Shown here in pieces: positions 4,556 to 62,972 of a DNA stretch of 64,000 nucleotides. How positions within the stretch are numbered: the first letter of the stretch is position 1; each line of letters begins with the position of its first letter. Made by a program: the position numbers and the translations under genes. The stretch covers positions 10,032 to 74,031 of the forward strand of contig CAYQOU010000010.1 in NCBI GenBank assembly GCA_964419255.1, read 5' to 3'. The notes beneath the pieces are model-generated. The model worked only from the letters and a program-made list of their open reading frames with translations. It did not search any database and was not told the DNA's origin. Origin of the DNA: an uncultured Fibrobacterota bacterium. Lineage in GTDB: Bacteria > Fibrobacterota > Chitinivibrionia > Chitinivibrionales > CAYFVL01.

Positions 4556-5875
4556 CTATGATTCTGTAGTAAATATCTGAAATCCATTATACGCTTCCAT
4601 ACCCATTTCGCCCACATCCAAACCGCCGATTTCTTCTTCGCGGGAGACCCGTACACCAACAGTTTTTTTCAATATAAACCACAAGAGCAAAGAAATAGGA
4701 AAAACCGTTGCACCTATTACGATTACTCCCAGAAGTTGTATTCCCATCAAAGCTAACCCGCCGCCGTAGAACAGCCCTCCATCACCGCCGCGCAGTGAAG
4801 GAATCGCAAATAGCCCTACAGCCAGCGTCCCCCACACACCATTAACCAGGTGCACTGCGAGTGCCCCCACAGGATCATCAATACTTATCTTATCAAATCC
4901 ATACACCGCCAGCACAACTAATACACCTGCTATTAAACCTATTATGAGTGATCCAACCGGTGATACAACTGCGCAGGGTGCGGTGATTGCCACCAGTCCG
5001 GCAAGGCATCCATTGACAATCATAGAAAGATCCGGTTTTCCGCCAATGATCCAAGCACTGATCATTGCTCCCAAGATCCCTGTACAGCTTGCCAAACCCG
5101 TTGTCAATGCTATTCGTGGGACGTTTGCATCCATTGCCAATTGACTGCCCGGATTGAAACCAAACCAACCGAGCCATAATATAAACCCTCCCAGTGTCGC
5201 AAGAGGAATGGAATGACCAACGATGGCACGCGGCGAACCATCAGGCATATACTTACCGATACGCGGTCCCAGAAGTAACACTCCAGCCAGTGCTGCCCAG
5301 CCTCCCACAGAATGTACAACCGTGGAGCCGGCAAAATCGTGAAATCCCATCTCGCCAAGCCAGCCGCCGCCCCATATCCAGTGACCACCAAGTGGGTAAA
5401 TAAAGGCAACCAGAAAAGTGCCAAATATTAAATACGATACAAACTTTATTCTTTCAGCAACCGCTCCCGAAATTATCGAACATCCGGCCGCAGCAAATGC
5501 CGCCTGAAAGAAAAAGAAAGCATATACCGGAATATTGGTTGCCGGATTGTGTGCCGATTCATCTACCATAAATGAACTTGTCCCCACAATACTATTACCC
5601 GGGCCAAACATCAAACCGTACCCGACAGCCCAAAAGGCGACCATGGAAATTGCAAAGACACTGAAATTTTTCCCAAGAATGTTTACGGCGTTTTTTGATC
5701 GACAGAAACCGGTCTCCACAAACGCGAATCCTGCATTCATAAAAAAGACAAGAAATGCCGCCACAAGTACCCAAAGGGTGTCTATCAAATTTATAGCTGT
5801 TCCGTCTTGAGCCATAACCGCACCAGTGGTTAATAGAACTAAAATGGAAACGACACTTCCACGGCGCAATTTCAT
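4556..5875 (-). CDS. amtB: Ammonium transporter AmtB (copy 1)
   Basis: Start taken at Met41 of the listed ORF ('MKLRRGSVVSILVLLTTGAVMAQDG', a signal-like N-terminus with a GGAGG RBS upstream). Amt signatures 'FAGSTVVHSVGGWAALAG' and 'DDPVGALAVHLVNGVWGT'. Clear paralog of the gene at 10215-11558. Confidence 0.9.
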   Translation of the reverse strand: MKLRRGSVVSILVLLTTGAVMAQDGTAINLIDTLWVLVAAFLVFFMNAGFAFVETGFCRSKNAVNILGKNFSVFAISMVAFWAVGYGLMFGPGNSIVGTSSFMVDESAHNPATNIPVYAFFFFQAAFAAAGCSIISGAVAERIKFVSYLIFGTFLVAFIYPLGGHWIWGGGWLGEMGFHDFAGSTVVHSVGGWAALAGVLLLGPRIGKYMPDGSPRAIVGHSIPLATLGGFILWLGWFGFNPGSQLAMDANVPRIALTTGLASCTGILGAMISAWIIGGKPDLSMIVNGCLAGLVAITAPCAVVSPVGSLIIGLIAGVLVVLAVYGFDKISIDDPVGALAVHLVNGVWGTLAVGLFAIPSLRGGDGGLFYGGGLALMGIQLLGVIVIGATVFPISLLLWFILKKTVGVRVSREEEIGGLDVGEMGMEAYNGFQIFTTES

Positions 5876-5944
5876 GCAGGACCTCCTCGTTTGACACATA
5901 ATTGTTGTATAAAAATTCAAGAATGAATCGTGGCACCTATATAC

Positions 5945-5959
5945 GCAACCCACATACCA
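5945..5959 (-). promoter_or_regulatory. Possible sigma-54 (-24/-12) promoter for amtB copy 1
   Basis: The minus strand reads TGGTAT-GTGGG-TTGC with correct GG/GC spacing. The GTTGCGTAT after it is identical to the porin-amtB promoter at 12822-12836. It lies 70 nt upstream of the ATG. Confidence 0.45.
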
Positions 5960-6120
5960 AACAATCGATTTGCATATCTGTTCTAAAAAACTCAATTTTG
6001 CTTTTCGGGTGGGAACAAATTTGTGTCATCCTGGTTTTGTGTGACAAATATGTATCACATACATCGTGTTTTCCCACGATCAGCTATTGCATATATAAAG
6101 TATAAAGGAACAAATGGCTG

Positions 6121-6135
6121 TGGCGCCATTTTTGC
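6121..6135 (+). promoter_or_regulatory. Sigma-54 (-24/-12) type promoter upstream of the degenerate activator gene
   Basis: TGGCGC-CATTT-TTGC, one mismatch to TGGCAC-N5-TTGC. It lies 27 nt before the first ATG (6162) and 81 nt before the alternative ATG (6216). Confidence 0.6.
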
Positions 6136-6161
6136 TTGCTTTGACAGCACACAAATAATGG

Positions 6162-7181
6162 ATGATTAAAAGTAAACTATCGATTCTCTTATCTTCTGTC
6201 AAGTGTAAGTTACATATGCTTATTACAGTGAACAATGCATTAGTAGGAACAAGTGAATCTATACAAAAGGTCCGTGATGCCATTGAGCGGGTTGCACACA
6301 CGACGACTCCGATACTGCTTGTAGGTGAGACCGGCACAGGAAAAGAAAGCATCGCGCGTGAAATTCACGAACTCTCGAATTTTTCGCAGGGTTCTTTTGT
6401 GACGGTCAATTGCCCTGCACTCACCGACACTGATTTGCAACAGGGACTGCTTCTTCATTCTCCTCCCCATGGTATAAAAAGGGGATATCAATCTTTGAGA
6501 CATGTGAACAATGCCACGGTGTTTCTCAATGAAATTGGCGAATTGCCATTAAGCGCACAGGGTGTTTTACTGGAGGTTCTTCAAAAATGGGATACCCACA
6601 GGCTGGAGAACGAAAAGCATACCTATACAACACGATTTATCGCATCGACGAGTCGCAATTTGGCCGAATGTGTCAAAATCGGAGAATTCAGAAAAGATCT
6701 TTTTTACCGTATAAATGTTTTTACAATCACACTACCACTCTTACGAGAACGCATTCCGGACATAATTCTTCTGGTCGATCACCTTCTTAACGCATACAAG
6801 ATAAGATACAGTAAACACATAGAGACAATCTCATCCGAAGCACTCGAATTATTGACCTTATACCCTTGGCCGGGTAATGTGCGGGAGCTGGAAAATGTCA
6901 TCGAGCATGCCGTGCTGGTATCTGCGGACACGGTAATTGAGGCACACGATCTGCCGAGCTGGATGCAGGTTTCAAGCACTGAAGATCATTCTCATGGTGA
7001 TACATTTAAAAGCCTTATAGCCGCCTATGAGAAAAAAATCATAACCAATGCTTTGGAAACTGCGCGAGGTAATCAGACAGAAGCGGCACGGCTTTTGGGC
7101 ACAACCAAGAGAGTTATTCAATATAAGGTGCGTCTCTACCATATAGACTACAGAAAGTTCAGAAACAGTCAGCCATTTTAA
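6162..7181 (+). CDS. Sigma-54-activator-like AAA+ protein with Fis-type HTH; no N-terminal sensor domain, degenerate GAFTGA and Walker B
   Basis: 339 aa. Walker A 'GETGTGKE', 'FRKDLFYRINV', 'WPGNVRELENVIEHAV' and C-terminal HTH 'NQTEAARLLGTTKRVIQYKV' are present. Where family members carry 'ELFGHEKGAFTGA', this protein has 'LLLHSPPHGIKRG'. Walker B reads 'VFLNEIGE' (N instead of D). The start may instead be 6216. Confidence 0.75.
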   Translation: MIKSKLSILLSSVKCKLHMLITVNNALVGTSESIQKVRDAIERVAHTTTPILLVGETGTGKESIAREIHELSNFSQGSFVTVNCPALTDTDLQQGLLLHSPPHGIKRGYQSLRHVNNATVFLNEIGELPLSAQGVLLEVLQKWDTHRLENEKHTYTTRFIASTSRNLAECVKIGEFRKDLFYRINVFTITLPLLRERIPDIILLVDHLLNAYKIRYSKHIETISSEALELLTLYPWPGNVRELENVIEHAVLVSADTVIEAHDLPSWMQVSSTEDHSHGDTFKSLIAAYEKKIITNALETARGNQTEAARLLGTTKRVIQYKVRLYHIDYRKFRNSQPF

Positions 7182-7329
7182 ACCTGCATTGTGCGGTTCT
7201 GAGTGGATGATTCGCCCAATCCCTTAAGGGCAGAAAGGTTGGAGTAGTCGTGCGGAATACCCTCTGTGGTATTTTCGACATTGCTGAAGCCCGGGATTCC
7301 CTGTGCCCTGCAGAATGGTATTGTAATTC
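7182..7329 (+). repeat. Intergenic repeat element, copy C
   Basis: Starts immediately after the stop codon at 7181: 'acctgcattgtgcggttc...cattgctgaagccc...cagaatggtattgtaattc'. It aligns along its length with the copies at 19052 and 30616. Confidence 0.75.
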
Positions 7330-7398
7330 TGTATATTGTATTTTGTGACTGCAGTCTGAGTCTATACTGAAAAACCTTTTTATACCAGAAAAACAATC

Positions 7399-9642
7399 AT
7401 GGATCACATTAAATTGCTCTGCGATATTGGAGAACTAAACTGGATCTTTTCGGATTCAAAAGGAACCGGTACATTCCTTCAGAAAATTGTGACCATGGTC
7501 GCGCGACATATGCATGCTCAGGTATGTTCGATCTATCTTTTCGATTCTTCAACCGAGAGGCTGATGTTGAAAGCGACTCACGGACTCAACCCTGCACATA
7601 TTGATAAAATATCTTTACGAATCGGTGAAGGGCTTACTGGAATGGCTCTCAAAGAGCTTCGCCCAATCTGCGAAACAAACAGCAGCATTCATCCTAATTA
7701 TAAATTCTTCGAAGGGTCATTCGAGGAGCATTTCGAGTCTTTCCTTGCCGTTCCGATCCTTCGGGGAATCGAAAAAATTGGTGTACTGGTAGTTCAACGG
7801 AAAAACAACGCGCCTTTCACCGACACCGATATCATTGCCATGCGTGCAGTCTCCAATCAGCTGGCAAACATCATAGAAAACGCGCGTGCACTGCTGTCAC
7901 TCAACGGCCGCATCGGCTCAAAACAAGATGCCCGAAAACCAAAACTCGACTCCTTTATTAAGGCGAAGAGCGCAAGTGCCGGATATGCTTTGGGCAATAT
8001 TGTGGTGGAAGAGAAGAATAAGGCATTTGCATATTTCAAAACTCGGCGGTTTACGACTGATTATTCACTGGACGATTTCGAAAAAGCGATAACCTATACC
8101 ACCCGTCAGTTGGAATCCTTTCAGGAGCATGTTGAAGAACAGCTGTCCGATGTGGCTTCTCTTATTTTTGCAGCACATCTTCTTTTGCTGCAAGACGAGC
8201 AGTTTGTCGGCACGATACGAAGACTTATACATGAAGGAAACAATCCCCCCGAGGCTACGATGCGGGTGGCCTCCCGGTATATCGATTTGCTCTCCTCCAA
8301 TGAAAACCCCTATTTCCGAGAGAAGGCAGATGATATCAAGGATCTGGCTCTGAGAATCATCCATAATCTGACCGCAGCCGAAAAAAAGGAAGGCAACTAT
8401 ACTAATCGCATTGTTATCGCACGGGAGCTGCTTCCCTCCGACATACTAAAAATCAGCATCGAGGGAGCATTAGGGGTTATTCTGGTGGGCGGTGGCGTGA
8501 CAAGCCATCTGAGCATTCTTGCCCGCTCTCTGCACATGCCGCTTATCATCGCCGATGTAGCTCAGCTTCTTGATTTGCCCCAATCAACACTAATCTTAAT
8601 GGATGGTGAGCTGGGAAATATCTTCATCAATCCGGATAAGAATATCATCACCACATTCCAAGAACGTGAAAAGGCACGAGAGCACAGCTGCAGCATACGG
8701 CACAAAGCAAAGGCGCAAACCTATACCCGAGATAACACAAGAATACATATTCTCAGTAACATCAATTTGCTCACCGATTTACAGGCCGCACAGCAATTGG
8801 GGTGTGAAGGCATTGGACTGTATCGTTCCGAATTTCCTTTTATTATTCGAAATAACTTCCCGTCCGAGGAAGAGCAGTATGTGGTTTATCGTAAACTGGT
8901 AAAGGGAATGCCAGGAAAGCCTATGACGTTTCGAACCTTGGATATTGGAGGAGATAAAGTTCTTTCCTACTATGACTGGTTTAAGGAGCAGAATCCCTTT
9001 TTGGGTATGCGATCAATTCGTTTCACGCTCAACAAAAAAGATGTTTTCATCCAGCAACTTCGTGCGATTCTGCGCGCCGGACATGATGCCGATCTGAAAA
9101 TAATGTTTCCCATGATATCCTCTCTGGACGAAATGCAGGCGGCACGTGCTCTTGTCAACCAGTGTTTGGAGCAGTTGAGCAGGGAAAAAGTAAAATATAA
9201 CAAGAAGCCGCATATCGGCATGATGGTGGAAATACCATCGGTCATCGAGCTGATTGATGAATTTGCGCAGCTTGTCGATTTCTTTTCGATAGGGACAAAC
9301 GACCTTATACAGTACCTGCTTGCAGTCGACAGGACAAACGAGAAAGTTTCGTACCTTTATTTGCCGCATCATCCTGCCGTTCTCAGAGCAATGAACCGTA
9401 TAGTTTCGGCAGCACATTCAAACGAAACTCCCGTCAGTGTCTGCGGTGATATGGCACACGATCCCCACTATATTCCCTTTCTATTAGGAATCGGGGTCAC
9501 ATCATTTAGTGTAGACCCAGTGTTTATCCCAGCCGTACAAACGAGTGTTCAGTCCACTTCTCTGAAAGAAGCTCAAAGTGTGGCAGGAAATCTTTTGCGA
9601 GCTTCAGAAATATCCGTAATAGAAAATTTTTTGAATATATAA
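7399..9642 (+). CDS. ptsP: Phosphoenolpyruvate-protein phosphotransferase PtsP (EI-Ntr, N-terminal GAF domain)
   Basis: 747 aa. An N-terminal GAF-like region is followed by PEP-utilising enzyme motifs 'GGGVTSHLSILARSLHMP' (active His), 'GIGLYRSEF', 'FFSIGTNDLIQY' and 'VSVCGDMA'. Confidence 0.9.
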   Translation: MDHIKLLCDIGELNWIFSDSKGTGTFLQKIVTMVARHMHAQVCSIYLFDSSTERLMLKATHGLNPAHIDKISLRIGEGLTGMALKELRPICETNSSIHPNYKFFEGSFEEHFESFLAVPILRGIEKIGVLVVQRKNNAPFTDTDIIAMRAVSNQLANIIENARALLSLNGRIGSKQDARKPKLDSFIKAKSASAGYALGNIVVEEKNKAFAYFKTRRFTTDYSLDDFEKAITYTTRQLESFQEHVEEQLSDVASLIFAAHLLLLQDEQFVGTIRRLIHEGNNPPEATMRVASRYIDLLSSNENPYFREKADDIKDLALRIIHNLTAAEKKEGNYTNRIVIARELLPSDILKISIEGALGVILVGGGVTSHLSILARSLHMPLIIADVAQLLDLPQSTLILMDGELGNIFINPDKNIITTFQEREKAREHSCSIRHKAKAQTYTRDNTRIHILSNINLLTDLQAAQQLGCEGIGLYRSEFPFIIRNNFPSEEEQYVVYRKLVKGMPGKPMTFRTLDIGGDKVLSYYDWFKEQNPFLGMRSIRFTLNKKDVFIQQLRAILRAGHDADLKIMFPMISSLDEMQAARALVNQCLEQLSREKVKYNKKPHIGMMVEIPSVIELIDEFAQLVDFFSIGTNDLIQYLLAVDRTNEKVSYLYLPHHPAVLRAMNRIVSAAHSNETPVSVCGDMAHDPHYIPFLLGIGVTSFSVDPVFIPAVQTSVQSTSLKEAQSVAGNLLRASEISVIENFLNI

Positions 9643-9773
9643 GAACCGCACCGGATGCCCAAGCTGACGGAGAGCCTGAGGATCAGGGATCGAGTATAAC
9701 GGAAAAAAAATCAAGCGTTGTCTCCGGGACAGCCTCTTATCCAGTAAATATCCTGCTACCGGACGCACATGTT

Positions 9774-9806
9774 AAAAAACCCGCATACATGAAGCATGTA
9801 TGCGGG
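9774..9806 (-). terminator. Rho-independent terminator after glnK
   Basis: Perfect 12-bp stem cccgcatacatg/catgtatgcggg (9780-9791 / 9795-9806) with a 3-nt loop. On the minus strand it is followed by TTTTTT (9774-9779). Confidence 0.85.
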
Positions 9807-9836
9807 TCAGGCTATAAGGTGCGAGGAAAGAGAACA

Positions 9837-10178
9837 TTACCCTATAGCGTCATTTCCTTCTTCGCCGGTTCGGATCCGGATACATTGCGGCAAATCGAAA
9901 ACAAAAATCTTTCCATCTCCGATGTTTCCTGTCCGTGCCCCCTTAATAATCGCATCAATTGTCGGCTTTACATATGGTTCATTAACCGCGATTTCCAGGC
10001 GCACCTTCTTCAACAGGTTTACCTCGATAACACTACCACGATAACTTTCGGTGTATCCGGCCTGCTGACCGCATCCGATAACATTGGTGACGGTCATTTT
10101 TCGAATTTCGGCGTTAAACAGAGCCTGCTTTACATCAGGCAACTTATTTGGTTGTATTACTGCAACGATCATTTTCAT
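9837..10178 (-). CDS. glnK: PII nitrogen regulatory protein GlnK
   Basis: 113 aa. T-loop '[13 protein letters not shown]' retains the Tyr. C-terminal '[11 protein letters not shown]...IRIRTGE'. It lies 36 nt downstream of amtB. Confidence 0.9.
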
Positions 10179-10214
10179 GTTATTTCGCTCCTTATTAACT
10201 GTTTATAATCCGGC

Positions 10215-11558
10215 TCAGCCTTCAGTATAAAAGATTTGAAATCCGTTGTACGCTTCCATTCCGTGTTCTCCAATATCGAGCCCTCTCAGCTCCTCATCGC
10301 GATCGACCCGAATGCCTATGGTCGCCTTAATAATTGAAAAGAGGATGAAGGCTGCGATAAAGGCCCATGCAAACACGCTCACGATACCAACCAGCTGCAC
10401 CATCACCGGCCCAAAACCTCCGCCGAAAAACAGTCCGTTTACGCCTCCGTATGCTTCCTGGGCAAATAACCCCGCAGAGAGTGTACCCCATGCCCCGCAT
10501 ACGCCATGGACGCTTACCGCACCAACCGGATCATCGATCTTGAGTACCTGATCGATAAACAAAACAGCCAAAACAACCAAAATACCACCGACCAGGCCGA
10601 TAATAACCGCGCTCAGCGGCGACACGTTAGCACACGGAGCAGTTATCGACACAAGACCGGCAAGTGCGCCGTTGAGAGCCATGGAAGCATCTGGCTTTCC
10701 TATAATCACCCAGGCGGTGACCATTGCGGCTAACGCCCCCATTGAGGCGGCAAGGTTTGTGGTCACGGCGATACGTCCGATGCTCATGTCGGCAGTTGTG
10801 GTCGATCCGGGGTTGAAGCCAAACCAACCAAACCAGAGAATAAATACACCAAGTGCTGCAAGCGGAATGTTGTGGCCGGGAATAGCACGAGAGCGGCCAT
10901 CCGGTCCATACTTGCCGACGCGAGCACCCAAAACAATCGCACCAGCCAGCGCACACCAACCACCGACGGAATGCACAACCGTTGATCCGGCAAAATCTAT
11001 GAACCCAAGGTTTTCCAGCCAGCCCTGTCCGTTGAACAGACTACCCCAGGCCCAGTGCCCGGAAATCGGATAGATAATCGCCGATATAACTATGCTGTAT
11101 ATAAGGTAAGCTGAAAATTTTGTCCTCTCAGCCATTGCACCGGAAACGATCGTTGCCGCGGTAGCCGCAAACACCGTCTGGAATATAAAAAACACCAGCG
11201 TCCATTCCCACCCTTCCATTCCCGGAGTTGCATCGGAGAGAAAAAAACCACTTGTTCCGATGAAATGCCCGGCGGTTGTACCAAACATCAGCCCAAAACC
11301 CAGCACCCAGAAACCAAGTGAGCCGATAGAAAAATCCATAAGATTTTTCATCATGATGTTAACTGCGTTTTTTGCACGGGTAAATCCGCTTTCCACCATG
11401 GCAAACCCGGCCTGCATGAAAAACACAAGCAATGCTGCTATCAGAGTCCACAGTACGTTACCATGTTCCTGCGGCATCATCTCAACCTCCTGAGCCACCA
11501 GAGGCATTGTACTTGCCCCGACCAGGAGTGCTGTGGTTATCAGTTTAGTTGTTTTCAT
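10215..11558 (-). CDS. amtB: Ammonium transporter AmtB (copy 2)
   Basis: 447 aa with a signal-like N-terminus. Motifs 'FAGSTVVHSVGGWCALAG' and 'DDPVGAVSVHGVCGAWGT'. AGGAGG RBS. Confidence 0.95.
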   Translation of the reverse strand: MKTTKLITTALLVGASTMPLVAQEVEMMPQEHGNVLWTLIAALLVFFMQAGFAMVESGFTRAKNAVNIMMKNLMDFSIGSLGFWVLGFGLMFGTTAGHFIGTSGFFLSDATPGMEGWEWTLVFFIFQTVFAATAATIVSGAMAERTKFSAYLIYSIVISAIIYPISGHWAWGSLFNGQGWLENLGFIDFAGSTVVHSVGGWCALAGAIVLGARVGKYGPDGRSRAIPGHNIPLAALGVFILWFGWFGFNPGSTTTADMSIGRIAVTTNLAASMGALAAMVTAWVIIGKPDASMALNGALAGLVSITAPCANVSPLSAVIIGLVGGILVVLAVLFIDQVLKIDDPVGAVSVHGVCGAWGTLSAGLFAQEAYGGVNGLFFGGGFGPVMVQLVGIVSVFAWAFIAAFILFSIIKATIGIRVDRDEELRGLDIGEHGMEAYNGFQIFYTEG

Positions 11559-19051: not shown

Positions 19052-19213
19052 ACCTAAATTGAGCAGTTCCGCGTGGACGATCCGCTCAAATCACTCACGG
19101 GCACAAAGGATTGAAGTAAATCGTGTGGAATAACCTCTGAGGGTTTTCCAGGATTGCTGAAGTCCTATGCACCAGTATGTTTGCGGAATCGCCTCGAGAG
19201 AATCGCACGATTC
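19052..19213 (+). repeat. Intergenic repeat element, copy A
   Basis: 'acctaaattgagcagttc...ccaggattgctgaagtcc...cgagagaatcgcacgattc'. Roughly three quarters of positions look identical to copy C by eye. Confidence 0.75.
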
Positions 19214-19284
19214 ACGGTATATATAATAATAAATGGGTTTTCTCCCATAATAAAGCACAGTAAATTAGTGAATCGTTTTAGCAG

Positions 19285-20769: not shown

Positions 20770-22310
20770 GATTTGTTCCCACATGGCCTTAACACTGCAA
20801 GCGGCACGATGGCTTCTTCCATCGAAATACCCCCATACCGCCAACCGTTCTGATTATTTCCAACGGTGTTCTCGGTTTTTTGGCTCGCAATAAAATAGTA
20901 GTTTTCTTTCAGAAAGACACAGGTCGTTTCAGGAGAAAAGGAAGGTAGCCGGAACCGGTGAGGCTCTGCCACAAAGAGAGCGTGTCTTTCATCACAGGAG
21001 ACACTTTCGCCGAAACGATATCGGTGTGGCATTTTTTCCGCTGAATCTCCATAGATTTCAGTACCCCGTGTGCAAAACACGCTACCATTACCTGCGGTAA
21101 GAATGACGGTACACTGCTGAGTATTCAGCGTCTGCAGAAGACGAAAAATGGTCGAATGGTTGAATCGATTGGCGAACATGGTGCGGGAATCCTCATCCGA
21201 TACTACAGGATGCAAGGAAAATGGTTGACTCAACGCGGTAATCTCAGACAAATTTACAAGTACCGGGATGATGCTCCCCTTTTGGAGAGCCCTGATGACA
21301 TTGTGTTCATCAAATTTCTTCTCGGTACGGAATATTGTGGTCTGTTCACCAAACCCCGCATTTCGAAGATTTTCTATCAGAAGCTTTTCCTCAATTTTTT
21401 CTTCAGTGACGATCTCAGGATTATCCGCTCGCCAGAAGCCAGAATAGTTATTTTCGATATCCATCGGGTAAAGGCCGGAAAGCAAGGAATACCGGGTAAA
21501 CGCTGGTGATGTGGGCAGAATGGAATAGGAGTGCATTCGGGTGATTTCGAAATATTTCCTGAGTATATGTTCGACTATCATGTATTGATCCAGTCGCATA
21601 CAATCAAAAACGACCAAAACTATTTTTTCACCTTCTTGCGCTCTAGGGAAAACAGCGGTTTTGAGCACATCGGGAGTCAAAAGCGGCGCATCACTGGCTC
21701 CGTGTATCCATCGCAGATAATTTTCCGAATAAAAACCCGAAAAAATCGCGTTTGCATCCGATTTCTGTCCTGCATGAATCTGACGTATACTCTCATTTTG
21801 GACATTTTTCAGCTGAAAATCCCACCGCGTCAGCTCCTCATACACTCCCGCCCACTCGCCGGTGGTAAGTGGTTTCTGCAAAACGGTACGAATTTGGGAA
21901 TAATCGCGCATAAAATTCTGGGATGCCCGGGAAGAAACCGCATGCCTGGTAGGAAGCAGCTTTTTGCATACCGCCAGAAAAGGGGCAGCTGTAACCGGCT
22001 TGTCCAAATATCCGTCGATCAGAGCTTTAAAGGTTTTTTCCAACTGCTGCTCTTCCATCCTTGCCACTAACACTACCGGTAGATCCCGATTGTGAAGTTT
22101 TATTTCCTCGGCTGTTTTCAGGCTGTCTTTATCGGACATTTGTTTATCGAGCAATACAAGATCATAATCCTGTCTCTTGTCTTTGAGCATCTCGAGAGCT
22201 TCATCACTGGTGGTTACAGGAGTAATGCTGAAGCCGCGCGTTTCCAGAAACATGATAAGCGAACGCTGGTATTCGATTTGATTATCTATCCACAACACAC
22301 TTTTACGCAT
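20766..22310 (-). CDS. Response regulator receiver fused to a PglZ/alkaline-phosphatase-like domain (PorX-like architecture)
   Basis: 514 aa. CheY-like N-terminus ('VLWIDNQ...DLVLLDKQMSD...YLDKP'), then a ~390-aa region with 'VLVVFDCMRLDQY' and C-terminal 'WRYGGISMEEAIVPL', typical of PglZ. Confidence 0.6.
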   Translation of the reverse strand: MRKSVLWIDNQIEYQRSLIMFLETRGFSITPVTTSDEALEMLKDKRQDYDLVLLDKQMSDKDSLKTAEEIKLHNRDLPVVLVARMEEQQLEKTFKALIDGYLDKPVTAAPFLAVCKKLLPTRHAVSSRASQNFMRDYSQIRTVLQKPLTTGEWAGVYEELTRWDFQLKNVQNESIRQIHAGQKSDANAIFSGFYSENYLRWIHGASDAPLLTPDVLKTAVFPRAQEGEKIVLVVFDCMRLDQYMIVEHILRKYFEITRMHSYSILPTSPAFTRYSLLSGLYPMDIENNYSGFWRADNPEIVTEEKIEEKLLIENLRNAGFGEQTTIFRTEKKFDEHNVIRALQKGSIIPVLVNLSEITALSQPFSLHPVVSDEDSRTMFANRFNHSTIFRLLQTLNTQQCTVILTAGNGSVFCTRGTEIYGDSAEKMPHRYRFGESVSCDERHALFVAEPHRFRLPSFSPETTCVFLKENYYFIASQKTENTVGNNQNGWRYGGISMEEAIVPLAVLRPCGNKS

Positions 22311-22793
22311 TACCAGGCCCCTTTACATACCAATCTAAGGTTTTTCCGCAGATCAGTTCCTTTGCCCACTGCACCGGAGGAATCCCCACGTGATTAAAAC
22401 GTATTTGCATATTCATTTCCCTATACTGTATACATTTTTTGATTGATGACACCTAAATTGTGCCAATCGCCGCAAGAGAATCGTATAATCTAGGTGGATA
22501 TAAATATACGTAGTATCTGTTCAGAATAATCACAATACCGTGTCATTCCACCCTCGGCGGAAGCTTGCCTCCTGTTTTGCTGAAACTTCAGAGGACTTTA
22601 TGTACGGAGAGAGGAGTATGGTATGACATCCGCGAAGTACTTTTCTGAATAGAAACCACCTAAGTCTCAGAGAGTCGGGGATTTTGCCCCGCCCGTTCAA
22701 TTAAGTATATTTGTTTCACCGTAAATATATAGTGTATGATAATTTTCGCCTTGGTACACCACTTTTCTTCCGCGGTAAGATTACCGTTTTCTG

Positions 22794-30527: not shown

Positions 30528-30615
30528 AAGCAATGAGAAAATAGTTTGCGCAAAAATGGAGGACCTCATTCATTACGAATTAAAGGAAAAAAAGTGCTCT
30601 GGGAAAAAGATTAAT

Positions 30616-30767
30616 GCCTGAATTGAGCGGTTCTGATTGATTCGCAATAGAATTGAAGGTTGGATGGTTGAAGCAATCTTGAAAATACCCCCTCGGTGCT
30701 ATTTCCAGGATTGCTCAAGCCCTTATACTTCCGAGGGACAGGGGGCGCTGCGAGAATAACTTAATTC
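30616..30767 (+). repeat. Intergenic repeat element, copy B
   Basis: 'gcctgaattgagcggttc...ccaggattgctcaagccc...gcgagaataacttaattc'. Confidence 0.75.
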
Positions 30768-30790
30768 ATGTTTAAAGAAAAAAAAGGGAT

Positions 30791-31662: not shown

Positions 31663-32424
31663 ATGTGGCGTTCTGCATGGACCAAGGCTACGTTTCTTTC
31701 GTTCTGCTGGATAAGTTATCTACTCTGCCTGGGATTGGGTGGCGGGATATATTATTTGATCCATCCACGCCTGGTACAGATTACTCCCCTTCTGGACTGG
31801 ACGATTCTGATTGCTTTCGGAACTTTTTTCCTGATATTAGGCGGTGGGCTGCTACTCCTGACCATCACCGCACTTACCGGTATAGACCTGCTCTATCCAC
31901 ACAATAAAAAGTCCGTCACGGTAAATCTTCTGTTTCCTATTGCAATCGCTTTGGGGAGATTGGTAGGAGTTCGCCGGGATAAGCTCAGGACATCTTTTGT
32001 GAAAGTAAATAACGCCCTTACCAAGGCTCAGCACAAAAGGATAAAAGGCGATCGAATCCTCATCTTACTTCCTCACTGCCTTCAGATAGATGTGTGTAAC
32101 CGCAAGATTACAAACAAGATCTCAAATTGTGTACAGTGCGGAAGATGTCCCGTTGGAGATCTGGTGGGCCTGGGGAAAAAGTATAACCTTCATCTCGAGG
32201 TCGTAAATGGAGGGACGCTTGCACGCAAAAGAGTAGCGCAATTCCGCCCGCATGGCATTGTTGCGGTAGCATGTGAAAGAGATCTGACCCTGGGTATACA
32301 GGACGTGCATCCCATTCCGGTGTACGGTGTCATAAACGACAGGCCGTATGGGCCATGTGTCAACACACGCGTCGATATGAATCTGGTAGAAGAAGCCGTG
32401 CGGTTTTTCCGAAAGGATATCTGA
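31663..32424 (+). CDS. DUF116-family membrane protein (Cys-rich)
   Basis: N-terminal TM helices, then 'ILILLPHCLQIDVCNRKITNKISNCVQCGRCPVGDL...GIVAVACERDL', which I recognise as DUF116. AAGGAG RBS. Confidence 0.65.
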   Translation: MWRSAWTKATFLSFCWISYLLCLGLGGGIYYLIHPRLVQITPLLDWTILIAFGTFFLILGGGLLLLTITALTGIDLLYPHNKKSVTVNLLFPIAIALGRLVGVRRDKLRTSFVKVNNALTKAQHKRIKGDRILILLPHCLQIDVCNRKITNKISNCVQCGRCPVGDLVGLGKKYNLHLEVVNGGTLARKRVAQFRPHGIVAVACERDLTLGIQDVHPIPVYGVINDRPYGPCVNTRVDMNLVEEAVRFFRKDI

Positions 32425-32518
32425 TACATGAATTGTGCGGCTCAGAGTAGGATGAGTCGCGCATTCCCTTCAAACGGCATCACCGCCGGAGAATCGCTCA
32501 ATTCTGCCGGAGAATCTC

Positions 32519-34204
32519 TCAGTTCTGTTGATATTCCTCCTGGTTTATTATCTGATACGAATAGCCTTGTTCAGTCAGGAACAGCTGTCGTTTCATAGCG
32601 AAATCCAGCTCCTTTGATTCACGCGTGACTATCGAATAGAAGGTCGCCTGTTGTTCGCCTTCTTTGGGGCGCAATATTCTGCCCAATCTCTGCGCCTCTT
32701 CCTGCCTCGATCCGTATGAACCGCTGATCTGAACGGCAACATTGGCTTCCGGCAGGTCGATAGCAAAATTACCAACCTTCGACAGTATGAGTACTTTTAA
32801 TTCACCGGTTCGAAACTGCTGATACAGCTTGTCACGTTCATCATTAGGGGTAGAGCCGGTGATCATCGGTACACCGAACTGTTTCGAAAAAGCTTTTAGC
32901 TGAGATATATATAATCCAATAATCAGAATACGGTCATCCGTATGCCTGTTTAAGATTTCCCGGGCGACCTGCATTTTCACAGGATTTTCATATGCCAGTC
33001 GGATCTGCTGTTTAGGAGGGAGCGAAAGGTATTGCATCTTTTCGGAATGCGGCAAGTCGATACGGATCTCAATACATTTAGCTTCAGCAATCCAGCCCTG
33101 TTTCTCCAGCTCCTTCCATGGTACATCGAATTTTTTGGGACCAATCAGGGTAAAAACATCATCTTCATGCCCGTCCTCACGAACAAGTGTTGCCGTCAAT
33201 CCTAAACGACGCCGGGCTTGAAGATTGGCCGTGAATTTAAACACCGGCGCCGGGAGAAGATGTACCTCATCATAGATGATTAATCCCCAGTTTTCTTTGT
33301 TGAAAATCGAGTAGTGCTCAAAAGAGTCGGTTTTCCTTCGTCTGTATGTTAAAATTTGATAGGTAGCGATTGTCAGAGGCTTAATTTCTTTTTTTTCCCC
33401 GCTGTACTCGCCGATATCTTCCGGATTGATGTCTGTTTTCTCGACGATTTCCCTGCTCCACTGACGGGCGGCCGTTATATTGGTTACAAGTATCAGGGTT
33501 CGTCGTTTCAACAGACTCATAACCCCCATGCCGACGACTGTTTTGCCGGCGCCACAGGGCAGAACGACAACCCCGGAGCCTCCGGGACTGGTGGAATCAC
33601 CGACGAAAGCGTCGGCAGCCTGACGCTGATAGTTGCGCAGAGAAAATTCCTTTTCACCCCTGATAGTGTGCCGAAGATTTATTTCGAATGGAGCCCCATC
33701 CACATATCCAGCCTTATCATTTGCGGGATAGCCGATACCGATCAAAGCCTGCTTCAGAAGCCCCCGATAATCATCGGAAACGCTAATGCTGTGGGCATCT
33801 ATCGGTGGGCCAATCAGAGGACGAAGTGTGGGGTGACGGGAGAGATTTTCCAGCAGTGCGGCATCTTTGCTGTGCAACACCAACCTGCCATCTCTTTTCT
33901 CCAAAACAAGCTTTCCGAACCGCCCCATAAACTCATACACCTCCTGGGTGACATTCTGAGGGACGGGATACTTGGAGAAATGCTCAAGGCGGCTGATCGC
34001 CTCATCGGGCGAGAGTCCAAGTGCGGCCGCATTCCACAGAGAAAGCGGCGTAATCACATAGGTATGCATGTACTCGGGACTCTTCTCCAGGTGTGCAAAA
34101 ACACTGATGGCGTCCCGTGCATCGACAAACAAAGAATTGTTCACCTCAAGCAATAGAGTTCGATCACTTTGAACAATCAAGGGATTCTGTGGATTCATAG
34201 ACAC
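32519..34204 (-). CDS. XPB/Rad25/Ssl2-type SF2 DNA helicase
   Basis: 561 aa. 'VVVLPCGAGKTVVG' (motif I), 'LIIYDEVHLLPA' (II), 'RLGLTATLVRED' (III), 'QRLGRILR' (VI). The N-terminal damage-recognition-like domain resembles XPB. Confidence 0.8.
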   Translation of the reverse strand: MSMNPQNPLIVQSDRTLLLEVNNSLFVDARDAISVFAHLEKSPEYMHTYVITPLSLWNAAALGLSPDEAISRLEHFSKYPVPQNVTQEVYEFMGRFGKLVLEKRDGRLVLHSKDAALLENLSRHPTLRPLIGPPIDAHSISVSDDYRGLLKQALIGIGYPANDKAGYVDGAPFEINLRHTIRGEKEFSLRNYQRQAADAFVGDSTSPGGSGVVVLPCGAGKTVVGMGVMSLLKRRTLILVTNITAARQWSREIVEKTDINPEDIGEYSGEKKEIKPLTIATYQILTYRRRKTDSFEHYSIFNKENWGLIIYDEVHLLPAPVFKFTANLQARRRLGLTATLVREDGHEDDVFTLIGPKKFDVPWKELEKQGWIAEAKCIEIRIDLPHSEKMQYLSLPPKQQIRLAYENPVKMQVAREILNRHTDDRILIIGLYISQLKAFSKQFGVPMITGSTPNDERDKLYQQFRTGELKVLILSKVGNFAIDLPEANVAVQISGSYGSRQEEAQRLGRILRPKEGEQQATFYSIVTRESKELDFAMKRQLFLTEQGYSYQIINQEEYQQN

Positions 34205-34348
34205 TTAAAAATGGAAGCAATGGTTAAATTCATCAAAACTATCTAAAATACGAACTGTGTGCTCGTGAAAGTGCACAAAATAGTTTCTGCGGCATTGACT
34301 CGCAGACAGGCTTGACGTACTTTCTTATGGTGCCGAATCATGACGCAT

Positions 34349-34382
34349 CCACTCGTCCGATTAAATGGAGAGTGGTTTTTTT
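34349..34382 (+). terminator. Orphan Rho-independent terminator on the plus strand
   Basis: Stem CCACTC/GAGTGG (34349-54 / 34370-75) plus inner TCC/GGA, followed by TTTTTTT (34376-82). There is no plus-strand gene upstream, since XPB is divergent. purA starts 260 nt downstream. Confidence 0.6.
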
Positions 34383-34641
34383 CGTTTATATGGGCAACGA
34401 CAAAAACAAAAGACGGCTCTTTTGATTCAGGCAGAAACTCATGATTCCGAGATACATACAACCGATTCGACTATTCCTCGTGATAGGACCCGTCTTCGAA
34501 ATCCTGCCCCGATTAACAAACCGGGACTATCCATTAAGGAACTTTGATTTGCGAATTGCAAAAAAAACGTTCTTCACGAATATAGTGATCAGCGTAAAAC
34601 ATATTTAACTGTTTCCGGCACGGCCGGTTTAGGAGATTTAC

Positions 34642-38611: not shown

Positions 38612-38719
38612 ACCCGCATTGAGCGATTTTCTCGCCGCTATCTCCCAATTCCATACAGCAAAAAAAAGGTCTTCAGCACTCATTACATATCTCAGCGGAT
38701 TACACGTTTGCTTAAAGCC
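38612..38719 (+). repeat. Intergenic repeat element, diverged copy D
   Basis: 'acccgcattgagcgattt...cacgtttgcttaaagcc'. The terminal motifs and the ~97-nt arm spacing match copies A-C. The middle is diverged. Confidence 0.55.
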
Positions 38720-38789
38720 TCCTTTTGGCCTCAAGTAATTGTGTAATTAATCTGCTCAGGACCATTCAATTTGAGTATACAATATGGAT

Positions 38790-41036: not shown

Positions 41037-41269
41037 GTAGAATTGTTGTTTTTTAGCAGGTAGTTGGGTGTAGGAATTATTGTTATAGTCATATAAACTA
41101 CAACATGCCACGTATAGGATCAATACGTTCTGCGGAAAACAACCTTTCGCCGCATTTGATATAGATTGTCATCGACACCATGCCAATGACATTGTCTCTG
41201 ATTAACACATTGTGTTTACCCGACATCGCTAATCCGGATTCGCGATCCTTCATTCTCAGCCTATTTTAC

Positions 41270-41357
41270 AGCTAAATTGAACGATTCTCTCTCGGCGAGT
41301 GCTTCGCCCTCACGGAATTACGTGAATCATCAGCTCATAACCACACGATTCAGGTTA
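41270..41357 (+). repeat. Intergenic repeat element, shorter copy E
   Basis: 'agctaaattgaacgattc...ccctcacgg...acgattcaggttac'. The 5' half aligns with copy A, including 'ctcacgg' at the same offset. The 3' end runs into the stop codon of the LOG-family gene. Confidence 0.45.
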
Positions 41358-42026
41358 CACAAAATTGACATCGGATTCCCGTTTCTTGTAAAAATCATTT
41401 ATGGTCGAAATCGCCTCTTCGGGATCATCGATCACCTTCATCAGACTCACATCATCCGAATCGATGTATTCGGTGCCAAGCATCTTTTCTTCCAGCCATT
41501 CGAGCAGACCGTTCCAGTAATCACTTCCCATCAGTATTAGAGGCAGATATTTTGCTTTCTGGGTCTGGATAAGCGTCAGCGTCTCAAACACCTCATCCAT
41601 TGTTCCGTATCCACCGGGCATAGCAATCACCGCGGAGGTATATTTCAGAAACATCACCTTCCTGCTGAAAAAATGGCGAAAATTGATCAACGTTTTGATG
41701 AACGGATTTGGCACCTGTTCATAGGGAAGCTGGATATTAAGCCCGACAGAAGTACCTCCGGCATCCAGCGCCCCCTTATTCGCCGCTTCCATTATCCCGG
41801 GGCCTCCTCCGGTGATTACACCGTATCCATTGCTGACGGCATGTGTCGCGGTCTGGTAAGACAACCGATAGTATTCGTGATCGGAGGGAGTGCGGGCGGA
41901 TCCGAAGATCGTCACACATGGTCCGATACGGGAGAGGGTCTCAAAGCCCTCCACAAACTCTGCCATGATACGAAAGACACGCCAGGTGTCATCATTAGAA
42001 GCTGGAATTGAGTGATTCGGTTTCAT
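41355..42026 (-). CDS. LOG-family (TIGR00730) nucleotide 5'-monophosphate nucleosidase
   Basis: 'VITGGGPGIMEAANKGA' and 'AMPGGYGTMDEVFE'. Confidence 0.85.
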   Translation of the reverse strand: MKPNHSIPASNDDTWRVFRIMAEFVEGFETLSRIGPCVTIFGSARTPSDHEYYRLSYQTATHAVSNGYGVITGGGPGIMEAANKGALDAGGTSVGLNIQLPYEQVPNPFIKTLINFRHFFSRKVMFLKYTSAVIAMPGGYGTMDEVFETLTLIQTQKAKYLPLILMGSDYWNGLLEWLEEKMLGTEYIDSDDVSLMKVIDDPEEAISTINDFYKKRESDVNFV

Positions 42027-50835: not shown

Positions 50836-52416
50836 ATGAATCATCAGTCTGAATTTTACTCATGCCGGTTTTGTTTTCGTGAAGATATTGAAGGGCTGGC
50901 CGAGATCGCCCATACCCTGGCTTCAGAGTCACAGCAGCGTCCGATGCTCATGAAAGTTTTGGATATAATCGAGAAGCGCTTGAACATGTTTCGTGGGACA
51001 ATCATGCTTCTGTTACCCGACAATTCACATCTTATTGTTCAGGCGGTTCAGGATGCTGAACATGAGGCTCAGGATCAGGTCCATTATCACCGTGGGGAAG
51101 GCATTATTGGGCGGGTTGTAGAGACCGGGAAAGCTTATGTGGTTCCCGATATTGCACTCGAGCCTGCCTTTAAAAACCGGATCCATAAAAGAACAAAGGA
51201 AAACACAAATCATCTTGCGTTTGTATGTATACCGGTTGTACTGGAAAATGAAGTGGTCGGGACCCTCTCGGTAGACATACCCCATAGTGCGGAACGTCCG
51301 CTGGATCAGAATGTCGGTGTGGTGAGTATCATCGGTGCGATGATCGCCAGTTTTCTGAGAACCGAACGGCTTGTACGTCTGGAAAGAGAAAGCTGGCGGA
51401 CCCGATATTGTCAACTGCAAAACGAAATGGGTGAACGCTTTAAGCCTGATACGATGATAGGGGTTTCCTCGGCGATGCGGGATGTATTCAGCCGTATACA
51501 GATAATCGCCCGGAGTGACACCTCCGCGCTTGTCCGGGGGCCCTCCGGCACGGGAAAAGAGCTGGTTGCAACGGCAATTCATTATGCGAGTGACCGACGC
51601 GATGCGCCTTTAGTAAAGGTTAACTGCGCTGCACTCAGCGAGTCGCTGGTGGAAAGTGAATTGTTCGGCCACGAAAAGGGTGCATTCACCGGCGCTCTCT
51701 ACTCACGCAAGGGCAGAATCGAAGAGGCGGAGGGAGGAACTTTGTTCCTCGATGAGATTGGTGAATTTTCTCCGGCGATTCAGATCAAACTACTCCGCGT
51801 GATTCAGGAGCGGCAGTATGAACGTGTTGGGAGCAATCAAACCAGAACGGCAGATATTCGCCTTATATCAGCTACGAACAGGGATCTTGAATGCGCTGTT
51901 GCAAACGGCACCTTTCGGGAAGACCTGTACTACAGAATCAATGTCTTTCCGATCACCATTCCCCCTCTTGCGCAGCGCAAGGACGATATACTTCCCTTAT
52001 CCAACGCATTTGTGGAAAAATTCTCTTCAAAGCAGAACAAAAAGATCACGCGCATCAGTACCCCGGCTATAAATATGTTGATGTCATACCATTGGCCCGG
52101 CAATGTCAGAGAATTGGAAAATGCCATCGAGTATGCGGTACTATTGTCAACCGATGGCGTCATTTACGGGCATAATCTCCCCCCGACACTTCAGACGCCG
52201 GATGGAAAAGATATAACGGCAAAGGGTGGTTTACGGGCCAGAGTCGATGCACTCGAACGCGATATGATCGTCGATTCACTCAAGAGATGCAAGGGCAATA
52301 TGACTGCAGCGGCAAGAAAACTTGGGATTACTCCCCGCATGGTAAGATACAAAATAAAGCAGCTCGGAATAAACACGCGTAATGTCACGACCGGCCAAAT
52401 AATCCTCAGAGGGTAA
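50836..52416 (+). CDS. nifA: NifA-like sigma-54-dependent transcriptional activator (GAF-AAA+-HTH)
   Basis: 526 aa. An N-terminal GAF region is followed by 'GPSGTGKELVA', an intact 'ESELFGHEKGAFTGA', 'GGTLFLDEIGE', 'FREDLYYRINV' and HTH 'NMTAAARKLGITPRMVRYKIKQLG'. It lies directly upstream of nifH. Confidence 0.75.
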   Translation: MNHQSEFYSCRFCFREDIEGLAEIAHTLASESQQRPMLMKVLDIIEKRLNMFRGTIMLLLPDNSHLIVQAVQDAEHEAQDQVHYHRGEGIIGRVVETGKAYVVPDIALEPAFKNRIHKRTKENTNHLAFVCIPVVLENEVVGTLSVDIPHSAERPLDQNVGVVSIIGAMIASFLRTERLVRLERESWRTRYCQLQNEMGERFKPDTMIGVSSAMRDVFSRIQIIARSDTSALVRGPSGTGKELVATAIHYASDRRDAPLVKVNCAALSESLVESELFGHEKGAFTGALYSRKGRIEEAEGGTLFLDEIGEFSPAIQIKLLRVIQERQYERVGSNQTRTADIRLISATNRDLECAVANGTFREDLYYRINVFPITIPPLAQRKDDILPLSNAFVEKFSSKQNKKITRISTPAINMLMSYHWPGNVRELENAIEYAVLLSTDGVIYGHNLPPTLQTPDGKDITAKGGLRARVDALERDMIVDSLKRCKGNMTAAARKLGITPRMVRYKIKQLGINTRNVTTGQIILRG

Positions 52417-52872
52417 TCCGTGCGATCGCCAGCATGCGAGCCAGCAGGATCGCATCGTTTCCTCCACCTTTAGAGGGTTTGGGTTGACCACTCAAAATCG
52501 CTCACCTTTGATTTGATGTTCAAAATATAGCCCCTCAGGAGCTTATTCTCCTCCCATCTCGCAAATGGGTGGTGAGGCAAGGTCAACGAGGTGATAGACG
52601 AATCAATAGTAGTTATTCTGAACATAAACTTTCCGATTCAATTATTCCCCATGTTTTTCATTAATCCGACAATTATTTCCGTTTCCCTCATTTATCTTAC
52701 AAATTTGTCACATGCGCAAAAAGCGGCTGTATAAGCAGCTTTTAGTACGCTTCTTTTCTGTAATACATGATTGTACCCCGATCCTGTGACAAAAACGTCA
52801 TTGTACCAGATAGTAATTGTCCCTTTTACATGTGCGATAGATATTTTGCGTTCATTTATGATCACATAATAA

Positions 52873-53871
<999 letters not shown>

Positions 53872-53905
53872 ATAATCAAATCATTTTCGTCCTGGAGGAT
53901 ACTCA

Positions 53906-54247
53906 ATGTTGATGATACGATCGATGATCAGACCGGAAAAAGCCGATGAGGTTATGGCTGGACTGCTGGAAGCCGGATATCCGGCGGTGACCAAGGTTTC
54001 CGTATACGGTAGAGGAAAGCAGCGGGGGCTGACGGCGGGTGATGTTACCTATGATGAATTACCCAAGGAGTTGCTGCTTACGGTGATAAAGGATAAGGAC
54101 AAAGACTTTGTTGTCAATACCATAATCGAACGGGCCAGAACCGGCAGTGAAGGTGCTTTTGGTGATGGTAAAATTTTTGTCACTCCCGTATTGGAATCCT
54201 ACACAATCAGCTCAGGTGTAAAAGAAGTATCGGAGGATGAGAAATGA
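53906..54247 (+). CDS. nifI1: PII-like nitrogenase regulator NifI1
   Basis: 113-aa PII fold ('MIRSMIRPEKADEV...GDGKIFVTPV') located between nifH and nifD. Confidence 0.85.
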   Translation: MLMIRSMIRPEKADEVMAGLLEAGYPAVTKVSVYGRGKQRGLTAGDVTYDELPKELLLTVIKDKDKDFVVNTIIERARTGSEGAFGDGKIFVTPVLESYTISSGVKEVSEDEK

Positions 54248-54657
54248 AAGAAGTCATGGCAATGATTCGGATAAACCGGATCAACGCAACCAAGCAGGCG
54301 CTTAGCGATGTCGGCATAACATCGTTTACCGCCACGGGGCGGGTATTGGGCCGTGGCAAGGGAGTAGTCGACTACCGAGTTTTGGAGGGCGCAAAACAGG
54401 GTAGTCAGGAAGCGATCACCCACCTGGGATCGGGTCCCAGACTTGTTCCCAAACGGTTAATCACCGTTGTTGTTTCCGATGACTGGGTTGAACGCACGGT
54501 AAAGGCCATAATCGATGCAAATCAGACCGGAAACGCCGGGGACGGTAAAATATTTGTCATGCCGATTATGGAAGCAACCCGAGTGCGTACCGGAGAAACC
54601 GTCTCGGGCGCATCGGGCGGTAATGTACTTGACTCTTCGGGAGGTATTGAATCATGA
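54244..54657 (+). CDS. nifI2: PII-like nitrogenase regulator NifI2
   Basis: 137-aa PII-like protein with an extended T-loop ('GRVLGRGKGVVDYRVLEGAKQGSQEAITHLGSGPRL') and 'GDGKIFVMPI'. ATGA overlaps on both sides. Confidence 0.85.
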   Translation: MKEVMAMIRINRINATKQALSDVGITSFTATGRVLGRGKGVVDYRVLEGAKQGSQEAITHLGSGPRLVPKRLITVVVSDDWVERTVKAIIDANQTGNAGDGKIFVMPIMEATRVRTGETVSGASGGNVLDSSGGIES

Positions 54658-56291: not shown

Positions 56292-56368
56292 GAGTATATG
56301 GTGGATTCAGGTCTGGCTTATCCAGCGGGACCGTACAGACAGCGACTATCGATTAGGAGGAATAGAAA

Positions 56369-57751: not shown

Positions 57752-57767
57752 CTACCAGAGGGGGGCT

Positions 57768-57791
57768 TGAGAGCCGTTCTTACGGCTCTCA
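57768..57791 (+). other. Perfect stem-loop between nifK and nifE
   Basis: TGAGAGCCG / CGGCTCTCA is a 9-bp stem with a 6-nt loop (ttctta). No T-run follows. Confidence 0.7.
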
Positions 57792-57826
57792 TAATATTCC
57801 AGCATATCTAGAAAAGTGATTGGATT

Positions 57827-60546: not shown

Positions 60547-60560
60547 CAGGATTATATATC

Positions 60561-61025
60561 ATGAATACGGATTTGACAATCAGATGTGCGACACTTGATG
60601 ACATACCGGGAATGTTATCTCTATTACAGAGCCTCTTTGCCATTGAGAAGGACTTTTGCTGGGATCCCGGCCTGCAGTCGCGAGGATTGAAAATGCTTAT
60701 CTGCCGGGCTATGCATGGGGACGCCACCGTGCAGGTGGCCGAATCAGTCGACAGGATTGTGGCTATGGGAACATGCCAGATACGTGTCAGTACCGCCATA
60801 GGCGGATTTTCCGGTGTGATAGAAGATATCATCGTTATGGAGCAATGGCGCAGACGTGGGGCCGGCAAACAAATTCTTGCGGCCTTATCAAGATGGGCCC
60901 GCGATCAGGGATGTCAGCAGGTCCAGCTGCTTGCGGATAACGAAAACAAGAATGCCCATGCATTTTATACACGCCAGGGCTGGTTTCGAAGCAGAATGGA
61001 ATGCTGGAAACGGGTACTTGTGTGA
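60561..61025 (+). CDS. GNAT-family N-acetyltransferase embedded between nifN and nifB
   Basis: 154 aa. Acetyl-CoA motif A 'VMEQWRRRGAGKQILAAL' and 'NAHAFYTRQGW'. It starts 14 nt after nifN. Confidence 0.8.
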   Translation: MNTDLTIRCATLDDIPGMLSLLQSLFAIEKDFCWDPGLQSRGLKMLICRAMHGDATVQVAESVDRIVAMGTCQIRVSTAIGGFSGVIEDIIVMEQWRRRGAGKQILAALSRWARDQGCQQVQLLADNENKNAHAFYTRQGWFRSRMECWKRVLV

Positions 61026-61158
61026 GAAGTAAGAATTAAGAAGTAAGAAGTGATGATTGTGAGTCAGGGAATCTGTAAACACAGAGCATAGATAATTGTA
61101 TGCCATATAGACTTTTTTTTGTAAGCGGAGTTATATCTGGTATAGGAAGGAGATCACG

Positions 61159-62454: not shown

Positions 62455-62633
62455 ATCACATCCTCCGACACCTTTACGGGTTAAAAGGAGTGAGATTCCA
62501 TGTCGGACAATCGGATGATATTGGTCGTATCATTTGTCTAACTTTTTTGTTTCCTTTATCCATAATATTTGATCTTAGATTCTCCGGCTTTGCCGGCGGT
62601 CTGTTTGCTTAACCTGTTTGAAGAGGAGTGATT

Positions 62634-62936: not shown

Positions 62937-62972
62937 TCCGAAAAAAGATATACTAACATAAGGCGGGCGGGT

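Follow-up and report, generated by a model that had tools for sequence, protein, structure and literature searches.

The window, by which we mean the whole 64,000-nucleotide stretch of DNA analyzed here, comes from an uncultured Fibrobacterota bacterium. The same DNA is present in contig JBKHCK010000002.1 (GCA_046541895.1), where window position equals record position minus 10054. The PurA protein encoded in the window bears the NCBI label "MAG: Fibrobacterota bacterium," and its closest named relatives are Chitinispirillaceae/Chitinispirillia MAGs. The genes are ordinary chromosomal ones, including ptsP, amtB/P-II, purA, lepA, trpBA, and a nif cluster; no tRNA genes were found in the window. 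Nitrogen-regulation genes (ptsP [GAF-EI], two amtB, and one P-II gene) lie at positions 4556-11558, and a nitrogen-fixation cluster with a NifA-like activator, nifH, two P-II genes, and nifDK-like, nifEN-like, and nifB-like genes occupies positions 50836-64000.

Seven copies of a repeat, named A to G, are interspersed with these genes. Together with the target-site duplications that flank two of them, they are, in window order:

7183-7332, plus strand: copy A, long form, 150 bp; 5' inverted repeat CCTGCATTGTGCGGTTCTGAG intact, 3' repeat decayed
19053-19216, plus strand: copy B, long form, 164 bp; flanking 5-mers ATATA and GTATA, matching at 4 of 5 positions
22452-22494, plus strand: copy G, minimal form, 43 bp; nothing but the two inverted repeats, left and right, back to back
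30617-30770, plus strand: copy C, long form, 154 bp; consensus 5' repeat; left flank ATTAA..TG, right flank TTTAA
32422-32426, no strand: left target-site duplication of copy F, TGATA; contains the stop codon of the DUF116 gene (32422-32424)
32427-32528, plus strand: copy F, short form, 102 bp; 3' repeat present twice in tandem (32485-32506, 32507-32528)
32529-32533, no strand: right target-site duplication of copy F, TGATA, after the outer of the two 3' repeats
38613-38775, minus strand: copy D, long, diverged form, 163 bp; orientation opposite to that of A, B, and C; no recognizable duplication
41266-41270, no strand: left target-site duplication of copy E, TTACA, 5 bp
41271-41354, minus strand: copy E, short form, 84 bp; opposite orientation
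41355-41359, no strand: right target-site duplication of copy E, TTACA; contains the minus-strand TAA stop of the gene at 41355-42026

All seven copies are intergenic, as the earlier note on this DNA had stated for the copies it listed: the noncoding share of the window is ∼12%, and 7/7 copies fall inside it. The same note described a family of five copies. Its view that copies A, B, and C are related stands, since they are ∼70% alike across ∼150 to 165 nt, the four long copies align with a mean column identity of 71%, and a long copy in the genome of a relative (L177, below) is matched at an E value of 5e-12 by a model built without that copy; the count does not stand, because copies F and G had been missed. 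An nhmmer model built from A, B, and C returns these three copies at E values of 1e-40 to 1e-50, which is circular because they made the model; the same model also matches the reverse strands of B and C and an extra locus at 32416-32471. A 12-mer from the 5' block, ATTGAGCGGTTC, has 20 matches in the window at ≤2 mismatches versus 6.5 expected, and 0 of 100 shuffles reached 20. The block ATTGCTSAAGYCC is common to A, B, and C, and copy G is linked to copy E through a common inverted repeat (I3). Open reading frames that cross A, B, and C are all short (≤82 amino acids), and none is common between copies.

Element ends and interior

Terminal inverted repeats of ∼20 nt bound every window copy (5' CCTGAATTGAGCGGTTCTGAG, 3' GAGAATCGCTCAATTCAGG), contrary to the earlier view that the conserved ends are not DNA terminal inverted repeats. 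They also bound three copies from other genomes, found on L018 and L177, the contigs of two relatives, and on L143, a metagenome contig. Alignment of 13 ends gave the consensus CCTGAATTGAGCG(G/A)TTCT, and paired opposite-strand matches to it bound each copy; a model made from the same 13 ends returned paired, oppositely oriented matches at seven window loci, F and G among them. The element starts CCTGAATT, with the variants CCTAAATT and CCTGCATT. What had been described as a separate tail, ...AGAGAAT...ATTC, is the 3' terminal inverted repeat, the partner of the 5' block, and copy D, previously ended at position 38719, runs to 38775.

The two ends are of slightly different subtypes, ...GCGGTTCTGAG at the 5' end and ...GCGATTCTCTC (reverse complement) at the 3' end, and these subtypes are swapped in copies D and E. 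In nhmmer, both score better on the minus strand than on the plus strand: copy D reaches 23.6 bits on the minus strand, and copy E has 12.5 bits there versus 4.0 on the plus strand. Five copies thus lie on the plus and two on the minus strand, contrary to the claim of one shared orientation, and the argument for a strand-polar chromosomal motif that was built on that claim fails. The L018 and L177 copies, moreover, are on the minus strand of loci that are oriented as in the window.

The 10 elements from the window and the three other contigs form a size series from 43 to 323 bp, and none contains a transposase gene. The two ends of single copies have drifted independently, as expected of decaying transposon ends; thus, most window copies are probably old and immobile.

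The interior contains motifs that resemble the right end. The right-end core motif GAATCGCTCAAT and its complement, at ≤3 mismatches, occur 24 times in the 10 elements versus 1.2 times expected. In each long copy and in copy F, a right-end-like motif follows directly after the left end, at element position ∼27, which is the layout of copy G. The 3' block that the earlier note had delimited (GGATTGCTCAAG) scores, in copy C, as another such motif at position 92. These internal motifs account for the 8-bp "helix" that had been proposed between the octamers TTGAGCGG and TTGCTCAA: it is the left end facing a degenerate internal right-end-like motif, a relic at the DNA level. The main long-range complementarity is instead that of the terminal inverted repeats. 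The pairing counts also changed; our re-count gives 6/8 in A, 7/8 in B, and 8/8 in C, in place of 7/8 in A, 6/8 in C, and 8/8 in B and D.

Target-site duplications and orthologous sites

With element boundaries set by the conserved termini (CCTGA-ATTG... on the left, ...CAAT-TCAGG on the right), perfect 5-bp duplications flank 4 of the 10 copies: E (TTACA), F (TGATA), L177 (TTTAA), and L143 (TATCA). When both boundaries were shifted from -3 to +3 (49 combinations), four elements matched at the unshifted setting (0,0), whereas each of the remaining 48 gave one match at most; calculated from the local base composition, the probability of ≥4 perfect 5-mers among 10 copies is ∼3e-10. The other six copies show no clean duplication when these boundaries are used. 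There is none in A, C, D, and G, and two are imperfect, copy B with its 4/5 match and the L018 copy with a 6-bp TTATTA repeat that is shifted by 1 nt. A 2-bp TA duplication of the IS630/Correia type (Correia elements have a TA duplication and 26-bp repeats) was considered and abandoned: TA lies at different distances from the repeat in different copies, and the 5-bp duplication fits the fixed boundaries exactly.

Several insertions touch stop codons. Copy A starts 1 nt past the TAA stop (7179-7181) of a sigma-54 activator gene, with ptsP 66 nt downstream; copies E and F are the other two in the window, and the element on L143 ends 5 nt before the stop codon of kdsB. Copy F contains, at 32519-32521, the stop codon of the minus-strand helicase gene, and its left duplication holds the DUF116 stop. 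Thus, copy F was inserted between two convergent gene ends, altering the C terminus of the helicase and supplying its stop codon, a small case of mobile DNA reshaping a coding sequence.

Comparison with relatives revealed both filled and empty sites. L018 is a contig of a syntenic relative whose PurA is 81% identical to that of the window. The copy C site is empty there: a single TTAAA lies between the Lnt gene and a gene for an 86-amino-acid protein, versus ATTAA..[copy C]..TTTAA in the window. At the copy F site, L018 has 48 nt of unrelated sequence and no element. L018 also carries a long copy of its own (5171-5332, minus strand) between the helicase gene and purA, where the window has 64 nt and no element. 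In the second relative, L177 (GCA_964586285.1; PtsP, 75% identical), the site of copy A is empty, the orthologous intergenic region upstream of ptsP consisting of 149 nt with no element, and a long copy is present at 20772-20920 on the minus strand. The amtB gene that lies in the window between the genes for the GATase and the sigma-54 activator is missing from L177. Conspecific contigs all retain every copy.

L143, an unrelated contig from a JGI metagenome, carries a 323-bp element at 659-981 with the same ends, the duplication noted above, and an interior unrelated to that of A, B, and C, as expected if a transposase recognizes the ends only. It was found in a metagenome scan with the pattern CTGAATTGAGCGGTTCTG (18-nt seed), which matched 46 contigs; among those inspected or scoring past the 18-nt seed, only L143 and L168 held real elements. 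Three other matches were discarded: a chance occurrence of the 18-mer in a tRNA-like region beside an integrase-like gene (L141, 11380-11450, reverse strand), an HtpG-like coding sequence (L136), and apparently unrelated sequence (L176). A scan of a genome collection with ATTGNGCNGTTC-N65-95-ATTGCTSAAGYCC gave only three chance matches, in Thermoplasmatota and Paenibacillus, with weak nhmmer scores, which is explained by the absence of this species from the collection. Viral contigs scanned with GAATTGAGCGRTTCT gave 111 matching contigs, each with a single chance match, and BLAST of the 323-bp element against a plasmid collection returned only 21- to 22-nt chance matches in Rhizobium.

The inverted repeats, the 5-bp duplications, and the presence of filled and empty orthologous sites together make it very likely that the family is a miniature inverted-repeat transposable element (MITE), a small noncoding mobile element, and not an RNA family. 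The MITE half of the REP/MITE-like option in the earlier note was therefore right. Bacterial MITEs have been described as small and noncoding, with terminal inverted repeats, direct repeats at the borders, and a long stem-loop predicted if transcribed (PMC11578231). Compared by description only, MITEPye1 of Paracoccus yeei, the Correia elements of Neisseria, and the enterobacterial ERIC resemble the window family in these traits and in being intergenic; MITEPye1 has been linked to IS1182 (PMC11578231). MITEs are an ordinary kind of genome parasite; this family is in an uncultured Fibrobacterota lineage, and our literature search on MITEs in Fibrobacterota found no report. Annotators of Fibrobacterota/Chitinispirillia-like MAGs gain a repeat with defined ends, sizes, and a 5-bp duplication that can be masked, and the repeat can be used as a marker of strain and species divergence.

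Transposon family and right-end use

For the mobilizing enzyme, sequence comparison leads us to favor, with moderate confidence, an IS1380-family DDE transposase as the candidate, because the ends fit CCYRNATT and the duplications are 5 bp long, as in ISEcp1 and IS1247. The left repeat of ISEcp1 is CCTAGATTCTACGT, and its direct repeats are 5 bp and AT rich (PMC6061673); in plasmid pC15-1a, we read the ends as CCTAGATTCTACGT and (reverse complement) CCTAAATTCCACGT. The direct repeat of IS1247 is also 5 bp (PMC3281130, Table 2). A tblastn search with the ISEcp1 transposase led to two distant annotated members of the family, an IS1247-like element with ends CCCACATTTCCCAAGT and CCTGCATTCCCCAAGT, starting CCCACATT and CCTGCATT, and a Ligilactobacillus element with CCTGAATTATTCATACTTTTC at both ends, starting CCTGAATTATTC. 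On the plasmid pLAC2 of Ligilactobacillus acidipiscis (L180, 773-802 and 2383-2412), the 21-nt ends CCTGAATTATTCATACTTTTC are perfect and a clean 5-bp duplication is absent; the 8-mer AATTACAA is found on the left flank and again 9 nt past the right end, so an alternative right end may have been used there.

The likeness lies in three traits. The starts fit CCYRNATT throughout (CCTGAATT/CCTAAATT in our element, CCTAGATT/CCTAAATT in ISEcp1, CCCACATT/CCTGCATT in the IS1247-like element, and CCTGAATT in that of Ligilactobacillus); the target duplications are 5 bp, AT rich in both ISEcp1 and the window family; and the extra right-end-like motifs in or beside our elements recall the alternative right ends used by ISEcp1 and ISPme1 (PMC9330008). 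On the other hand, our elements are 43 to 323 bp long and have no transposase gene, whereas the insertion sequences are ∼1.6 to 1.7 kb; apart from the 8 outermost bases and a CG at positions 12 and 13, the repeats differ from those of each IS1380 member that we read; and the host is an uncultured Fibrobacterota bacterium. A literature search returned no report of an IS1380-derived MITE. The link is supported and not proved: the shared part of the termini is only 8 bases long, duplications of 4 to 5 bp are made by other families as well, and a transposase with these ends was not found. Among those other families are IS701, ISH3, and Tn3.

In the proposed mechanism, a transposase encoded elsewhere would bind both ends and move or copy the element, which would insert at AT-rich sites, often on or beside stop codons, with duplication of 5 bp of the target. 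A putative autonomous partner would be predicted to start CCTGAATTGAGCGG and end CCGCTCAATTCAGG. The short forms could have arisen by deletion between internal right-end-like motifs or through alternative right ends. If the IS1380 link is true, the family would offer a natural system for the study of right-end choice by IS1380 transposases, the property that underlies the spread of blaCTX-M and blaCMY via ISEcp1.

Derivation of the MITE from another transposon family, either as a Tn3-derived TIME or from relatives of IS701, ISH3, or IS1634, is unlikely, though it is the strongest of the competing explanations. A search for transposase genes that covered the window and the preceding 10 kb at the start of the contig found none, and the lack of an identified cognate enzyme leaves room for such a source; the first 8 nt of the element, which fit all three IS1380-family elements that we read, speak against it. 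Tn3-family ends begin GGGG. TIMEs (Tn3-derived inverted-repeat miniature elements) are reported to be non-autonomous and to insert into AT-rich targets with 5- to 6-bp duplications, in agreement with the AT-rich 5-bp duplications of the window family, but their inverted repeats are 38 bp long and conserved in Tn3-family transposons (PMC4133298), and ours are ∼20 nt long and start CCTGAATT.

An extension of the MITE reading is speculative, and we think it rather improbable: that the element grows and shrinks through alternative right ends and that the copies at stop codons (A, E, F, and L143) have acquired a role as RNA hairpins at which transcripts end or are stabilized. The first part is suggested by the layout, in which copy G joins one left end to one right end, the long copies add one or two further right-end-like motifs to such a core, and the duplication of copy F follows the outer of its tandem ends. 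It would be a miniature parallel of ISEcp1, which captures resistance genes by misreading right ends.

Folding and RNA-level readings

The earlier note had leaned toward RNA, proposing that the conserved ends pair in a family of sRNAs. We consider it very improbable that the copies are paralogous sRNAs or cis-acting structured RNAs. The elements do fold into long hairpins (copy B, z = -3.5), and copy B forms one long imperfect hairpin from either strand. The plus strands of A, B, and C fold 4 to 16 kcal/mol better than the minus strands, A and B lie ∼65 nt upstream of same-strand genes, and the internal pair of columns 58 and 111 is GC in two copies and AU in two. Against these signs, scoring of the proposed helix over the four long copies gave 84% pairing and no compensatory change; where its positions vary, pairs are lost, and the one variable 3' position forms a G-G mismatch in 3 of the 4, so that the RNA-level helix finds no support. 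Over the same four copies, the terminal helix was 73% paired, with 0 covarying pairs, and did not exceed shuffles. RNAalifold gave a consensus of -4.3 kcal/mol with a covariation term of +0.12, and two pairs were changed on both sides yet kept in at least one copy, columns 58 and 111 being the clearer case.

A search of Rfam returned no match at gathering thresholds and none in the elements at E values up to 10, in line with the earlier remark that no known RNA family was recognized; with no covariation and so weak a fold, the sRNA option falls. Promoter- and terminator-like consensus sites around A, B, and C were within shuffle expectation, and none brackets an element. The presence of both orientations and the size range of 43 to 323 bp also tell against functional RNAs, which would leave the target-site duplications and empty sites unexplained. 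Two narrower ideas were dropped, a sigma-54 promoter in the TTGC block, rejected by eye because there is no GG 10 nt upstream of the GC, and a CsrA/RsmA sponge suggested by many GGA motifs, given that the inverted repeats and duplications explain the family. Since folding favors the plus strand in A, B, and C and the covariation test, with four sequences only, is weak, the hairpins of the MITE could still have a secondary effect on transcripts. A false lead is thereby removed, that of a new class of sRNA or riboswitch.

Least likely of all are REP/REPIN palindromes spread by a RAYT, an IS200/IS605-like tyrosine transposase that acts on single-stranded hairpins with a possible strand bias: the window family shares with them abundant intergenic imperfect palindromes, the whole element being one, and a short hairpin in the unit (in the 5' part of each long copy, between the left repeat at position 6 and the right-repeat-like motif at position 27), but its elements are flanked by exact 5-bp duplications and have termini that fit those of IS1380-family DDE elements, it has no known RAYT gene, and the 5 of 7 window copies in one orientation are not significant, with the L018 and L177 copies on the minus strand. 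HUH/Y1 transposition, the type used by IS200/IS605 and RAYT systems, is not known to generate target duplications.

Two other intergenic features came to light in these comparisons. In the spacer between the helicase gene and purA, a block of ∼130 nt (window 34262-34395; L018, ∼5360-5490) is conserved in both species, and the flanking spacer is not. The block ends with a hairpin, CCACTC...GAGTGG, followed by 6 to 7 T residues, and so resembles an intrinsic terminator; Rfam has no match for it, and a small RNA or a leader is a possible identity. The motif AAAATAGTTT(N)GCG occurs in two separate intergenic regions of the window (30540-30553 and 34279-34295) and is kept in L018 (1682-1695); a promoter or operator function in this lineage is possible.
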